Virus record (IMG/VR): IMGVR_UViG_2802429249_000004
Span: 1-15,411 of that record
Source of the DNA: a virus
Taxonomy: Duplodnaviria > Heunggongvirae > Uroviricota > Caudoviricetes
Strand: one strand, 5' to 3'
DNA: 15,411 nt
Shown here: piece by piece, positions 1 through 15,411 of the stretch
Numbering within the stretch: position 1 is the stretch's first letter
Layout of the letters: the number at the start of each line of letters is the position of its first letter
Notes under the pieces: generated by a model
Told to the model about the DNA's origin: nothing
Seen by the model: the letters and a program-made list of their open reading frames with translations, nothing else
The model's database searches: none
Translations under genes and position numbers: made by a program

Positions 1-1215
1 ATGCTGCTTTCAGACCTTGCTATCAGACGCGCGAAGCCGAAAGAAAAGGCTTATACGCTCAATGACGGTAACGGGCTTTCGTTACTCATTGAGCCGAACG
101 GCTCGAAAGGGTGGCGACTACGTTACAGGTTTGCAGGAAAGCCCAAAATGTTGTCATTGGGCGTGTACCCTGATGTGTCTCTGTCTGATGCCAGGGCGGC
201 AAGGGATGAGGCTAAAAGGCTTCTTGCTGGTGGTATAAATCCAAGTGAGGCCAGAAAAGCCCAAAAGCGAGAACAGGCGAGCAAATTTGGCAATACTTTT
301 GAGGGTATCGCTCGCGAATGGTACGAAAAGCGGATCGACAGGTGGTCATCGTCATACGCCGAGGAAATGATCGAGACGTTTGAAAAAGACGTTTTTCCGT
401 ACATTGGCGGTAGGCCGATCGCAGAAATTAAGCCGATGGAATTGCTGGCGGTTCTTTCCCGTCTTAATGACCGTGGTGCGACTGAAAAATTGCGTAAGGT
501 TCGCCAGCGATGTGGCGAGGTGTTCCGGTACGCAATCATCACCGGACGCGCCGAATATAATCCAGCCCCTGACCTGGTGAGCGCATTTGCTCCACATAAA
601 AAAGAGCATTACGCCTATCTGAAGGCCGACGAACTGCCGGAATTTTTCCGCGTTTTTAATACGTACACCGGAAGCCAGATCGTCAAACTGGCAATGCGGC
701 TATTAATTCTGACAGGTGTCAGACCCGGGGAATTACGGCAGGCAGAATGGCGGGAGATCGATTTTGATAATCGTTTGTGGGAAGTGCCTAAAGAACGAAT
801 GAAGATGCGCCGTCCGCATTGTGTGCCATTACCAGAACAGGCGATAAAAATACTGGAGCAGTTAAAAAACATGACAGGCCAGTATCAGTTTATTTTCCCC
901 GGTCGTATTCACCACAGTAAGCCAATGAGTGAAATGGCGATGAATGTACTCATTCGTCGTATTGGCTACGCCGGGCGCGTCACTGGTCATGGATTCCGGC
1001 ACACCATGAGCACCATTTTGCATGAACAGGGCTATAACACTGCGTGGATAGAAACACAGCTTGCGCATGTTGATAAAAACTCAATTCGTGGCACGTACAA
1101 CCATGCGCAATATCTGGATGGTCGCCGGGAAATGCTCCAGTGGTACGCCGACTATATGGATTCGCTTGAGCATGGCGGAAATGTTGTTTACATAAAATCT
1201 GAAAAATTAAATTGA
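1..1215 (+). CDS. int: Site-specific tyrosine recombinase, P4-type integrase
   Basis: 404-aa ORF. N-terminus LSDLAIRRAKPKEKAYTLNDGNGLSLLIEPNGSKGWRLRYRF matches the P4/IntA integrase family arm-binding region. C-terminal catalytic signature GHGFRHT (H-x-x-R box) and RGTYNHAQY (tyrosine nucleophile region). ATG sits exactly at position 1, so the true start could lie upstream. Confidence 0.9.
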   Translation: MLLSDLAIRRAKPKEKAYTLNDGNGLSLLIEPNGSKGWRLRYRFAGKPKMLSLGVYPDVSLSDARAARDEAKRLLAGGINPSEARKAQKREQASKFGNTFEGIAREWYEKRIDRWSSSYAEEMIETFEKDVFPYIGGRPIAEIKPMELLAVLSRLNDRGATEKLRKVRQRCGEVFRYAIITGRAEYNPAPDLVSAFAPHKKEHYAYLKADELPEFFRVFNTYTGSQIVKLAMRLLILTGVRPGELRQAEWREIDFDNRLWEVPKERMKMRRPHCVPLPEQAIKILEQLKNMTGQYQFIFPGRIHHSKPMSEMAMNVLIRRIGYAGRVTGHGFRHTMSTILHEQGYNTAWIETQLAHVDKNSIRGTYNHAQYLDGRREMLQWYADYMDSLEHGGNVVYIKSEKLN

Positions 1216-1245
1216 TTACATTGATATTCTTATATAGGTGATATC

Positions 1246-2154
1246 ATGCTTCCTGAAAGATTGTTTTACACTCTGAATAAAGCAGCTTTTGAGATAAATA
1301 GAGATGTTTATGATTTATTTCACTATATATCAATCGGAATGGTTGATGTAGCAATAAATATAGACTTGTCAGATCTTATTGAAGAAGGAAGGGTCTCTGT
1401 TCGTGGTAAATTTAATAAAGAAATATTTACTAATACAAGAAGTAAAAAATTCAGACATCGCTCTAACTATGCAAAAATAAGTGAAGTTATTAGTTGCGAA
1501 TCTAATGGAAAGTTAAAACATAGAAAAGTCATTAAGGCATGTGGTCTTTTTTCTGTCCGAACATCCAATCTTTTTAAGATGGATGCTGATTTTGATAACG
1601 TGAAAGAATTTGTTGTTGATAGGCTATATCCAGTGAGGCTTCCATCTTTTACGCACTATAACTTGGAGGATTATAACCCACGAGTAATTTTAATTGATGG
1701 TGGTATAAATATTAAAACAAGCGATTTAGTTATAACTAAAAGTGAATTATTTTTGCTTAAAAATGGTGGAGTGACAATAAATTGGAGATTAAACCAAGTC
1801 AAATCATCTATGGATAAGTATCCCGATTTTATTAAAAGTAAAATGGATGGGGGAAATTCACGTAGTTGCGAAACAATTAACAAAATGGTGGGTAAGCCTA
1901 GAAATATCTATCGAAATGTTATTGTTGATGTAGCGAAAGCTACTCGTATTTCTTATCCGTGGAGCCATACGACATTAATTATCAATAAAATACACTCCTT
2001 GCTTTATTCTGTTGATGCTGTTAATACACCTAAAGTAGGTACAATTAGAAATATTCTTTGTTCAGAAGGAATTGGCAAAACAGGAGTGGAAACAAAAGAT
2101 GATTTCCGCTTGGTTATCCCAGAGGAGTACAGAAAATTATTTAAATTGAATTAA
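1246..2154 (+). CDS. Hypothetical protein, AT-rich orphan cargo gene (no recognisable domain)
   Basis: 302-aa ORF with SD-like AGGTGA 5 nt upstream of ATG. Codon composition is strikingly AT-rich (many AAA/AAT/ATT/ATA codons) compared with the flanking integrase and alpA. No competing ORF. Confidence 0.7.
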   Translation: MLPERLFYTLNKAAFEINRDVYDLFHYISIGMVDVAINIDLSDLIEEGRVSVRGKFNKEIFTNTRSKKFRHRSNYAKISEVISCESNGKLKHRKVIKACGLFSVRTSNLFKMDADFDNVKEFVVDRLYPVRLPSFTHYNLEDYNPRVILIDGGINIKTSDLVITKSELFLLKNGGVTINWRLNQVKSSMDKYPDFIKSKMDGGNSRSCETINKMVGKPRNIYRNVIVDVAKATRISYPWSHTTLIINKIHSLLYSVDAVNTPKVGTIRNILCSEGIGKTGVETKDDFRLVIPEEYRKLFKLN

Positions 2155-2252
2155 ATTGTATTTAATTTAAATTTTAATATTTAATTTAAAAAATACATCC
2201 TTCTCTTGTGTATATTCCAGAAACAGACTTTTATATGCATCAGGAGAAGTGT

Positions 2253-13424: not shown

Positions 13425-14480
13425 GTGTCTACACAGAAAATTGAAGAAAAATTTACATCTGCACAAGATGCATTAGTAATTCAGCAATCCGATTTATCAT
13501 TAAAGTCACTTTCTGATATGGTTGAATTAGATGCAGTAGATATAAGTCCAAAATATCAGAGAAGGGAGCGTTGGACTGCGGAGAAAGAGTCAAGTTTGAT
13601 TGAATCATTCTTGCTAAACATCCCGGTCCCGCCAATTTATCTCGCAGAGGATAGATATGGAATCTACTCAGTAATAGATGGAAAGCAAAGAATAACGGCT
13701 ATAAATAAATTTTTAACAAATAAAATGAAACTCGTGGAATTAGAAAAATTTCCAGAGTTAGAAGGGTTCTATTTTAAAGACTTACCCCAACCTCTTTCTA
13801 ATGCATTAAGCATCCGACCATATTTAAGAGTGGTCACATTATTGCGCCAATCTGACCCAGACTTAAAGCATGAAGTCTTTCTGAGATTAAATAAAGCAGG
13901 AGTATCTTTAAATTCTCAAGAGATAAGAAATGTTGCTTTTAGAGGGGATTTAAATGATGCTCTTATTGAACTGTCGGATACTCCATTTTTAAAAGAAATG
14001 CTTAAATCAAATAAAAATACTAAAATTTACCAAGAAATGGGAGATGTTCAGTTTGTGTTGAGGTTTTTTACTGTGTTTGATTTGTGGGAAAATTTTCCAG
14101 GTAATATGGATAAAGCTATGGATCTATTTATGGCGAAAAAATCTCGCAGCTCAATTCAAGATGTTAACGAAATGAAGCGGTTATTTTTGCGCTCAATTCA
14201 TTTTTGCGAGACGGTGTGGGGTAATGATGCATACAAAAGAATTGATAACAGTCAACGCGTAATTCAAGGTATGTATGATGTCCAGATGGTTTGCCCTGCC
14301 TTTTTACAACAAAATGAATATGATCATGCCATGGAAAATGCTGCTGATGTAAGACGACTCTTAGTTGATGAACTTTCAAATAATGCGGATTTTCTTGAAT
14401 CAGTGACTCAGTTCACGTCTAACCCAAGAAATATTGCATATAGAATATCACACTTCTGTGACCTTCTGAGAAGAATTTAA
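13425..14480 (+). CDS. DUF262 / ParB-like nuclease-NTPase domain protein (GmrSD-N-like), putative defence component
   Basis: 351 aa. N-terminal region ISPKYQRRERWTAEKESSLIESFLLNIPVPPIYLAEDRYGIYSVIDGKQRITAINKF carries the DUF262 hallmarks (QR..W, LI(E/D)S, DG(K/Q)QR-T). GTG start with AAGGG 7 nt upstream. Strongly AT-rich codon usage. Confidence 0.75.
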   Translation: MSTQKIEEKFTSAQDALVIQQSDLSLKSLSDMVELDAVDISPKYQRRERWTAEKESSLIESFLLNIPVPPIYLAEDRYGIYSVIDGKQRITAINKFLTNKMKLVELEKFPELEGFYFKDLPQPLSNALSIRPYLRVVTLLRQSDPDLKHEVFLRLNKAGVSLNSQEIRNVAFRGDLNDALIELSDTPFLKEMLKSNKNTKIYQEMGDVQFVLRFFTVFDLWENFPGNMDKAMDLFMAKKSRSSIQDVNEMKRLFLRSIHFCETVWGNDAYKRIDNSQRVIQGMYDVQMVCPAFLQQNEYDHAMENAADVRRLLVDELSNNADFLESVTQFTSNPRNIAYRISHFCDLLRRI

Positions 14481-14481
14481 T

Positions 14482-15411
14482 ATGCCTATTCCAGCGAAGG
14501 ACAATTTGCTAAAAAGAATCCTGTCTGTAGATAATGCAACTCAACTACCAGCACTTATCGATAAAGATGTTATGCAGGAACAACACAATATCACAGCTAA
14601 TCTTCTGAGAAAAGGCTTAGGTATAGTAGCATTTAATATTCTGGAAGATTTTATAAAATCCAGAACTATAGAAATGTTTGATTTTATATCTAATGCACGT
14701 GTGAGATTCGAGCAGTTACCCGATTCTTTTAGAATTGCAGCAACAAATGGTGCATTAAGAGGATTAGTATATCAGGCTGGATTAGAAAAGAAAAATAATG
14801 GAGATTGGTTGGCACTAATACATTCTGAGGCCAAAAGTATTTTTTCAACGTCGCAATTTCCTTATACATTATCTCGAGTATCACTTCTTTCAGATGGTTC
14901 TAATGTTGGACATGATGATATACCAGAAGTAATGAAGTGTCTTGATATAACTGGTGGGTGGAAGACATTACAAAAAATATCGAACGATATTGGTGGTGGT
15001 ACATTAGATCTGAATGCTGCTTATAAAAATATGTTTTTCGATAGAAATAGATGTGCTCATGAAGCAGGTTTTAATTATCCATATACCTCTCTCGATAATT
15101 CTTTAAATGACATTGTTACTATTGCTTCTGCATTTGACATAGCGTTAACTACTCGTTGCAGGTATATAGAAAAACAACCTAATTTACCGCTTTCAGCTCA
15201 TAAAGAAAAAGATCCGTTTTCATATCGGTTTTTAATCGCTGATGGAGATGTTTTTCGAGAGAAAAAATCATTAGAACCTGGTGCGAAAACAATAAAAAAA
15301 TGGAGTAATATCTCTGATGCACAATCTAATTTAATTCCTAAGCTAAGACTCCGCGATGAGTTTTTGATTTATATAGGAAAACAGAGAAGGCTTAGTGATT
15401 GGTATTTGTGA
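14482..15411 (+). CDS. Hypothetical protein, operon partner of the DUF262 protein; weak HEPN-like R-x4-H motif
   Basis: 309 aa. ATG lies 1 nt after the upstream TAA, so the two are tightly coupled. Same AT-rich composition. Motif RNRCAH at aa 188-193. Stop TGA falls at the window end. Confidence 0.7.
   Translation: MPIPAKDNLLKRILSVDNATQLPALIDKDVMQEQHNITANLLRKGLGIVAFNILEDFIKSRTIEMFDFISNARVRFEQLPDSFRIAATNGALRGLVYQAGLEKKNNGDWLALIHSEAKSIFSTSQFPYTLSRVSLLSDGSNVGHDDIPEVMKCLDITGGWKTLQKISNDIGGGTLDLNAAYKNMFFDRNRCAHEAGFNYPYTSLDNSLNDIVTIASAFDIALTTRCRYIEKQPNLPLSAHKEKDPFSYRFLIADGDVFREKKSLEPGAKTIKKWSNISDAQSNLIPKLRLRDEFLIYIGKQRRLSDWYL

Follow-up and report, generated by a model that had tools for sequence, protein, structure and literature searches.

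Phage-inducible chromosomal islands (PICIs) of Gram-negative bacteria and the satellite P4 are the described systems with which the present locus was compared. AlpA is the activator, or trigger, in Gram-negative PICIs, PerC is typical of the PICIs of E. coli, and int, AlpA and the alpha-type protein are the only three proteins common to PICIs and P4 (PMC6092414). PICIs of the EcCICFT073 type (PMC6092414, PMC6739421) have int at the left end, AlpA, a pri-rep gene with an origin of two iteron sets around an AT-rich core, and PerC; they are about 15 kb long, carry no virion genes, and have a lambda-like cos and an Rpp protein that retargets the helper TerS. EcCIMP1, which lies at thrW in E. coli MP1, was reported to be induced and transduced by the helper phage Kapi1 (PMC11773190). 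He et al. described in 2024 three PICI regions with immune genes, namely the 5' end, the 3' end and a middle region beside pri (PMC11364771). The locus described here is a stretch of 15,411 nucleotides, positions 1 to 15,411 of the IMG/VR virus record IMGVR_UViG_2802429249_000004, and this whole stretch is called the window. The identical sequence is present in several E. coli draft assemblies. Our analysis indicates that the window is probably the coding body of an integrative Gram-negative PICI-type satellite island of about 16.1 kb, inserted at the 3' end of glyU in E. coli, closest to EcCIMP1, with cassette exchange and defence cargo.

The PICI criteria of Fillol-Salom 2018 (PMC6092414) were used. 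The window has int at its left end, with site-specific insertion and flanking direct repeats, an AlpA-family regulator near int, and a primase gene followed by an origin of two iteron sets around an AT-rich region. No structural or lysis genes were found when the main predicted open reading frames (ORFs) were scanned with Pfam and PHROGs, and the size of about 16.1 kb compares with the about 15 kb expected. The features that carry this reading are the following (protein lengths in amino acids, aa; HTH, helix-turn-helix).

1-1215, forward strand: tyrosine integrase (Pfam Arm-DNA-bind_3, Phage_int_M and Phage_integrase, i.e., arm-binding, central and catalytic domains)
1188-2297, forward strand: slot 1, the int-alpA cassette, with a single AT-rich gene (1246-2154) for an orphan 302-aa protein with MerR/Xis-like winged-helix pieces
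2253-2453, forward strand: AlpA-family regulator (Pfam Phage_AlpA, 1.6e-19)
2532-3332, forward strand: AntA/AntB-type antirepressor (Pfam AntA, 2.5e-23; PHROG 'anti-repressor Ant')
6149-7954, forward strand: P4-alpha-like primase/helicase (Pfam D5_N, DUF5906 and Pox_D5; phrog_864, 7.5e-156)
7955-8325, no strand: predicted replication origin, with two groups of GGTAGACA iterons on either side of an AT-rich core, in the 371-bp gap after the primase
8326-8868, forward strand: ProQ/FinO-family protein (Pfam ProQ, 2.9e-22)
8865-9152, forward strand: PerC-family regulator (Pfam PerC, 3.8e-32)
9182-11007, forward strand: block 2, an optional module with a 380-aa lipoprotein (9287-10429), a 107-aa membrane protein (10495-10818) and a possible leftward 66-aa ORF (10881-11081)
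11633-12160, forward strand: 175-aa protein (the HTH gene) with an N-terminal Xis/TerS-DBD/Rpp-type winged helix and an unmatched C-terminal domain
13220-15411, forward strand: terminal slot, with a ParB/DUF262 protein (GmrSD_N, NsnA-like; 13425-14480) and a RiboL-PSP HEPN protein (14482-15411), extending about 350 bp past the window

A previous sequence-only reading of the window had named int, alpA, an antirepressor, an early operon, a primase, ProQ/PerC and an HTH gene as the backbone. Pfam, PHROGs and NCBIfam upheld the gene names, with the antirepressor of the AntA family, the primase of the D5/P4 type and ProQ of the ProQ/FinO family. It had recognised no capsid, tail, sid, psu or delta genes; PHROGs, Pfam and tblastn against P4 were likewise negative for these, and also for lysis and epsilon homologues.

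Comparison with described PICIs

EcCIMP1 resembles the window in its series of int, one small variable gene, alpA, AntA, Icd-like/DUF4222 genes, primase and PerC. The identities to the window are 66% for int, 76% for AlpA, 59% for the AntA antirepressor, 49% for PerC and 62% for orf55, and EcCIMP1 is likewise without recognisable terS, capsid and Rpp genes and belongs to 'Type C'. On the other hand, its replication gene is its own, a TOPRIM/DUF927 protein of 918 aa, and the P22-like ejection-protein and DUF2824 genes after its primase are absent from the window. EcCIMP1 also lacks the ProQ/FinO gene, the lipoprotein module and the DUF262-HEPN pair of the window, and it is located at thrW, not at glyU.

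EcCICFT073 was compared by its published description, not by sequence. The window shares with islands of this type the left-end int, AlpA, the replication gene with an origin of two iteron sets and an AT-rich core, PerC, the approximate size and the lack of virion genes, but neither the lambda-like cos nor the Rpp protein was found in the window.

The capsid-forming PICI (cfPICI) vB_KppS-Ant (LR881103, 16.5 kb, induced lysate) has a primase with 74% identity to that of the window over the full length, an iteron origin, and a left end with int, a single gene and a regulator. Where ProQ, PerC, the lipoprotein module and the HTH gene lie in the window, it carries genes for capsid, protease, portal and connector along with terS and terL, and its iteron is GGTGAACA versus GGTAGACA in the window. 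Assignment of the window to the capsid-forming type was rejected, as it has no capsid, portal, protease, head-tail connector or terminase genes of its own.

Since immune-gene regions at the 5' end, in the middle and at the 3' end of PICIs have been published, the backbone with three slots seen in the window is the known PICI picture. Specific to the window are the glyU-targeting integrase, a rare slot-1 allele, the GGTAGACA iteron variant and the DUF262-HEPN cargo.

Insertion site and boundaries

Window position 1 lies 164 bp downstream of the end of the tRNA-Gly(CCC) gene, glyU. The last 18 bases of this gene, TTCCCTTCGCCCGCTCCA, are attL, and attR, TTCCCTTCGCC-GCTCCA, lies at window-equivalent 15938-15954, about 530 bp past the window, as a 17/18 direct repeat of attL. 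A GTGTATAGnAATGnGTATAG motif is found just inside both island ends, outside the window (loci L006, 8700-8730, and L002, 11375-11400), and these motifs are probably arm-type integrase sites. About 200 bp preceding attR are kept in other glyU islands. The left host flank consists of xdhABC and ygeR/actS, then the tRNA-Gly, and the right flank of a ygeH-like regulator, yqeJ, yqeI, yqeG, yqeF and kduI/D. Because host genes lie outside the att repeats, the element is about 16.1 kb long, all of its genes are within the window, and no phage structural genes follow beyond it. The sequence-only reading had looked to att direct repeats with a flanking tRNA as a sign of such an element, and the attL/attR pair at tRNA-Gly(CCC) bears this out; the structural genes beyond the window that would have spoken for a larger phage were not found, both flanks being host genes.

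The integrase (1-1215) is the module directing insertion at glyU. Relatives located at thrW with the same backbone have a different integrase, which shows about 66-78% identity over part of the gene only. The glyU sites examined, which do not amount to a systematic survey, hold only islands of this family. In other E. coli genomes (L007 and L008, 8756-12769), what is left of this very island at glyU matches the window at 100% identity up to position 4014, after which a deletion extends into yqeJ/yqeI. It indicates that the element decays in situ.

The families AntA, YlcI/YnfO, DUF4222 and PerC also occur in lambdoid prophages, and the window could in principle be a lambdoid prophage remnant without late genes. 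However, both att sites are intact and 16 kb apart, no fragments of structural or lysis genes are present, and the island carries a primase-type replicon of its own together with the matching origin. Moreover, the same compact layout is found in more than 100 genomes, and deposited phages gave no nucleotide match. We consider a lambdoid remnant to be extremely unlikely.

Composition and cassette exchange

GC content was measured per sliding window, per gene and per block, and the GC content at third codon positions (GC3) was measured per block. The sequence-only reading had set three AT-rich blocks against a balanced backbone, and the measurement confirmed the contrast. The GC content is 0.316 in block 1246-2154 (GC3 0.23, z-score -10), 0.395 in block 9287-11100 (GC3 about 0.31-0.33, z-score -8), where the AT-richness is only mild, and 0.343 in block 13140-15411 (GC3 0.21-0.28, z-score -14), versus 0.487 in the remaining 10 kb, the backbone. 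Backbone windows of equal length have GC minima of 0.42, 0.46 and 0.47, far above the three blocks, and a uniform composition is excluded by this calculation. All three blocks are therefore real, but a fourth AT-rich stretch had been overlooked: positions 7955-8325 have a GC content of 0.315, are intergenic and full of iterons, and are predicted to be the primase's own replication origin, not cargo.

Genome counts were taken over 5426 complete E. coli genomes. Of these, 1870 contained at least some part of the window, and none contained 80% of it or more. The backbone is the more frequent part, with the primase in 845 genomes, alpA-antA in 242 and positions 11300-13178 in 169, while block 2 was present in 113, slot 1 in 2 and the terminal block in none.

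Junctions were determined in two panels, one of 14 annotated loci and the other, independently, of 80 IMG/VR loci picked solely by primase similarity. The two panels agreed on the junctions 1187/2267-2298, 6532/8322-8344 and 9166-9181/11008-11017, and further on 12459/12465, 12591/13048 and 13150-13249/end. The slots obtained by this alignment (1188-2266/2297, 9167/9182-11007/11016 and about 13220 onward) fit well with the blocks drawn by eye, and all three proposed slots are genuine exchange points. The number three was nevertheless too small, since exchange also affects the integrase, the replication gene together with the origin, the gap between the origin and ProQ, and the positions 12459/12465 and 12591/13048. 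In addition, the slot between int and alpA is always filled and is perhaps regulatory, not optional cargo. The same backbone occurs at thrW as well, with the different integrase noted above. These alignments indicate that the family evolves through cassette exchange at fixed junctions.

Replication gene, origin and the relation to P4

A recombination breakpoint that recurs among relatives lies at 6532, inside the replication gene. The first approximately 128 codons (6149-6532) are 91-94% identical across islands with a D5 primase, a RepA-type helicase (AAA_25) or a DUF927/TOPRIM primase, and the rest of the gene after 6532 is exchanged jointly with the origin. It points to an N-terminus that may serve as a common adaptor domain fused to interchangeable replication engines.

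In the origin region (7955-8325), GGTAGAC occurs in 8 exact copies, in both orientations and in two groups, versus 0.65 copies expected for the whole window. Each type of replication gene in the relatives has its own iteron downstream, which is AAAGTG(A/G)GG in those with the RepA helicase, GCGGGATA in those with the DUF927 primase, and GGTGAACA, the exact P4 sequence, in D5-variant relatives and a cfPICI. It suggests that the iteron-binding specificity may switch within one primase family.

These findings bear on the relation to P4. The primase of the window has 50% identity to P4 alpha over its residues about 146-592, while the N-terminal third of alpha is replaced by a 128-aa domain common to other island replication proteins. 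The tandem 'AACTGTCTACACTGTCTACC' parallels the type I repeat 'AACTGTTCACACTGTTCACC' of P4 crr/ori; the iterons of the window, TGTCTACC/GGTAGACA, differ by two bases from the 8-bp P4 type I repeat TGTTCACC and share its arrangement and its 9-bp tandem spacing (P4: L053, 4305-4410). P4 also has a distantly related tRNA-targeting tyrosine integrase (38%) and AlpA/Vis (Vis/ORF88, 37%), the Icd-like domain is present in the window, and P4-like elements too have a variable, defence-carrying hotspot next to int. On this basis the window might be a P4-like satellite, degenerate or divergent, now devoid of epsilon, of the capsid-size operon psu-delta-sid and of the cI RNA immunity region. However, homologues of sid, psu, delta, epsilon and cI were not found with tblastn and PHROGs, and none of 50,697 phage records, P4 among them, was matched by the whole window in megablast. 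An Rfam scan at E<=1 gave two matches (Plastid-psbM and HOLDH), both far under the gathering thresholds, and neither of them is a C4/CI-type immunity RNA. The gene order differs from that of P4; int-alpA-...-primase-ori-PerC is the PICI order (a P2-type cohesive end was not searched). The proteins shared with P4, namely int, alpA/vis and the C-terminal two thirds of alpha, are exactly the three common to PICIs and P4 (PMC6092414). A P4-like satellite is thus very unlikely in our estimation, which agrees with the sequence-only reading in that the element is not a classical P4.

The terminal slot

The terminal slot was compared in 23 loci with enough sequence past the HTH gene. It has 12 distinct contents, all AT-rich, among them GapS1, PARIS AriA/AriB, an Old nuclease, bSEFIR, a trio of methyltransferase, DUF262 and HEPN, a DUF4747 pair and a Schlafen/ATPase protein. 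From its gene content, the slot is predicted to be an anti-phage defence hotspot. The DUF262-HEPN block of the window was found in 0 of the 5426 complete genomes and 0 of the 80 IMG/VR relatives.

The ParB/DUF262 protein has 351 aa, matches Pfam GmrSD_N (4.9e-23) and contains a DGKQR motif; in PADLOC it scores better on NsnA (7.3e-65, full length) than on PD-T4-2_A (3.5e-33). The HEPN gene starts one base past the DUF262 gene and encodes 309 aa, with a match to Pfam HEPN_RiboL-PSP (1.6e-6) and an R188-x4-H193 motif that is invariant in 34 homologues. Neighbouring DUF262 and HEPN genes of the same sizes are found in Pseudomonas, Vibrio, Sulfurimonas and Pontibacter, with a DNA methyltransferase nearby twice. 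A DNA methyltransferase gene stands directly before the pair in the same slot of E. coli E189 (L038, 16683-19781) and in Pontibacter (L049, 270-3656). It suggests that the methyltransferase is an optional modification partner of the DUF262-HEPN module, possibly for self-protection. In Vibrio harveyi (L051, 1-10918), the pair lies among regularly spaced genes of about 117 aa, resembling an integron cassette array.

Menshen consists of NsnA followed by the NsnB ABC-ATPase and the NsnC inPIN-nuclease (PMC12065111). This assignment was rejected because NsnB and NsnC are absent from the window, which contains no gene for an ATPase, the downstream gene being a HEPN without PADLOC match, and GmrSD was rejected because the DUF1524 nuclease domain is absent. 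PD-T4-2, described by Vassallo in 2022, protects its native E. coli strain against T4 (PMC9519451) and has the domain architecture of DUF262 plus a PF18735 HEPN (PMC10952713). By its predicted domains, the two-gene pair of the window has this PD-T4-2 architecture, with a DUF262/ParB-like and a HEPN protein; it differs in that its DUF262 protein scores higher on the Menshen NsnA and its HEPN protein is unmatched by the PD-T4-2_B model. Most likely, as judged from family knowledge, the DUF262 NTPase would sense invading, foreign or modified DNA and license the HEPN RNase effector. The pair would thereby give direct or abortive immunity and shield the host and the island from competing phages.

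Packaging and mobility

Several observations weigh against our reading of the window as a PICI-type satellite with defence cargo. Neither PHROGs nor Pfam revealed a gene for TerS, Rpp, Ppi or capsid morphogenesis in the window, and there was no PDB sequence match to RppC or TerS. A search for lambda-type cosN in the window and its 3' flank gave only 3-mismatch matches, which is the chance level (P2-type cos and pac were not searched). Transcription is mostly rightward, but 3747-4310 and 12682-12939 are leftward. The window has three of the five SatelliteFinder PICI core components (int, alpA and primase), whereas Type A or B needs at least four. By these criteria, applied by hand and not by running the program itself, the island would be 'Type C' like EcCIMP1, and the authors of the scheme noted that Type C may include defective or unrelated elements (PMC10085698). 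As for the cargo, the Pfam score of the HEPN protein is barely above the cutoff (28.6 vs 28.4 bits), and the PADLOC PD-T4-2_B model gave no match to it at E<=0.1.

The same observations can be taken to mean that the element is an integrative defence or accessory island with PICI-like modules that has lost, or never had, packaging by a helper phage, and that is inherited vertically and moves only via generalised or lateral transduction or recombination. No packaging, cos/pac or capsid-redirection function was detected, within the limits of the cos and pac searches just given, and the possibly defective or unrelated nature of 'Type C', the truncated remnants at glyU (L007 and L008) and the 5'-damaged state of one small gene in the window copy would fit this explanation. 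Against it, int, alpA, the replication gene, the origin and both att sites are intact, and many lineages, with two different tRNA sites between them, keep the full 16-kb organisation at 95-98% identity, which argues for recent mobility. Furthermore, EcCIMP1 is without the same modules and is yet induced and transduced by Kapi1. We regard a non-packaged island as unlikely, although it is the explanation that we would consider first after a PICI-type satellite.

IMG/VR contains 284 relatives of the primase. Most of these were called as proviruses in genomes of isolates and do not show that packaging occurs. The sequence-only reading had proposed a helper-dependent island; the Gram-negative PICI layout, closest to EcCIMP1, agrees with the island, while helper dependence we only infer, because no packaging or interference gene was recognised. 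Overall, its interpretation is supported.

The 175-aa winged-helix protein is a candidate packaging-redirection or excision factor. Its match to TerS/Rpp concerns the generic winged-helix fold only.

The variable gene beside alpA

In 27 loci with both flanks, slot 1 contained four unrelated cassettes of 1.07-1.26 kb; none of the loci was empty, and there was always one gene. The allele of the window is the rarest and the most AT-rich of the four. Its 302-aa product combines winged helices of MerR/Xis-like type with a beta-rich middle domain that is novel, and it gave no PADLOC, Pfam, PHROGs or NCBIfam match; the other three alleles gave no significant match to Pfam or PADLOC. It is represented by two near-identical clusters among 5.8e9 proteins and by 18 weak matches among 1.8e9 representatives, some of which are N-terminal-only or C-terminal-only. 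A relative with 42% identity lies downstream of an integrase and directly precedes an alpA gene, and another relative has a 59-aa gene and then a Bro-N protein downstream.

Slot 1 is perhaps an always-occupied allelic cassette that is regulatory rather than optional cargo. The constant occupation of the slot, the unrelated and similar-sized alleles, the DNA-binding folds and the linkage to alpA, also in remote homologues, raise the idea of a helper-specificity regulator akin to the hypervariable Stl repressors of the Staphylococcus aureus pathogenicity islands (SaPIs). Such a winged-helix protein would keep alpA off until a helper-phage protein binds, and the four alleles would be tuned to different helpers. 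This specific proposal is speculative, and we think it quite unlikely to be correct. Alternatively, the slot-1 alleles could represent new defence or exclusion proteins, each encoded by a single gene.

Other features of the window

The remaining features of the island are as follows.

3747-4310, reverse strand: leftward two-gene unit with a 66-aa ORF (3747-3947) and a YlcI/YnfO-family protein (4005-4310)
4498-6152, forward strand: early operon of overlapping small genes, i.e., Icd-like (4498-4863), 4856-5080, 5073-5438, 5431-5664, 5657-5857 and DUF4222 (5862-6152)
11097-11264, forward strand: orf55, 62% identical to the EcCIMP1 gene directly downstream of its primase
11332-11532, forward strand: small gene, a 5'-damaged copy of a 90-aa gene of relatives
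12465-13047, both strands: two small ORFs, of 60 aa (12465-12647, forward) and 85 aa (12682-12939, reverse)
13048-13219, no strand: conserved left border of the terminal slot, 85-93% aligned in many relatives; all alignments end between 13150 and 13249

The leftward unit matches NCBIfam YlcI_YnfO_N (5e-18), phrog_6522 and phrog_21027. The AT skew flips at 3747-4310, leftward terminator-like sites are present at 3655-3636 and 3381-3356, and this region varies among relatives. The unit points away from the early operon, whose last gene is the primase-helicase, and is a candidate repressor module. A 512-aa open frame (3325-4863) covers the antA-to-icd interval and overlaps both leftward genes and the Icd-like gene. 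It is annotated as a gene in some public assemblies (L005 and L009), but it is almost certainly an artefact. In the early operon, matches were obtained to NCBIfam phage_ICD_like (3.8e-22), Pfam DUF4222 and PHROG families of unknown function, and the gene order is likewise annotated in relatives. A consensus promoter scan of the window gave fewer sites than shuffled controls and was discarded.

The ProQ/FinO and PerC genes (8326-9152), conserved genes of accessory and regulatory type, form the segment most widely common to relatives. The gap between the origin and ProQ may contain, in relatives, IS1 or a set of hypothetical-protein and SDH-protease genes; in some of them (L036, 13123-15119; L041, 452-1591), the set consists of two small genes and an SDH-family Clp-fold serine protease. 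This set resembles a PICI-borne system known from the literature, and PADLOC 2.0 gave no recognition of it.

Of the 28 loci in which both flanks are available, 20 have block 2 (1.85 kb) and 8 lack it, with 18-138 bp in its place. A strong terminator lies within it at 10441-10463. Its lipoprotein and membrane protein gave no Pfam, PHROGs, PADLOC or NCBIfam match. The N-terminal half of the lipoprotein is coiled-coil-rich, and the 107-aa protein has several membrane spans. Surface exclusion of phages is a plausible role for this block.

The 90-aa gene (11260-11532) has a stop at the ninth codon in comparison with the E123 copy, and a 66-aa frame from a TTG codon is left. Further right, an insert of about 730 bp is found in some relatives at the breakpoint 12459/12465, and positions 12592-13047 are an optional segment bounded by the recurrent breakpoint 12591/13048.

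Proposed life cycle and significance

In the life cycle that we propose, a helper phage would switch alpA on, and AlpA would then drive excision and the early operon. The primase-helicase would fire the origin, and the replicated island would be packaged into helper virions, a step for which the best candidate is the 175-aa protein with its Xis/TerS/Rpp-type winged helix.

The window is a clean, fully delimited case of the assembly of an enterobacterial PICI-type island from cassettes at fixed junctions. One position at the right end hosts GapS1, PARIS, Old, bSEFIR and DUF262-HEPN types, which makes it a rich defence hotspot. The conserved junctions (about 13048-13219, the approximately 200 bp before attR, and 1187 and 2298) are usable as anchors to collect candidate defence genes from thousands of genomes. 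Finally, the sub-family includes the experimentally mobile EcCIMP1, and this raises the questions of which packaging route is taken without terS, Rpp and capsid genes, and what role is played by the ever-present variable gene beside alpA.

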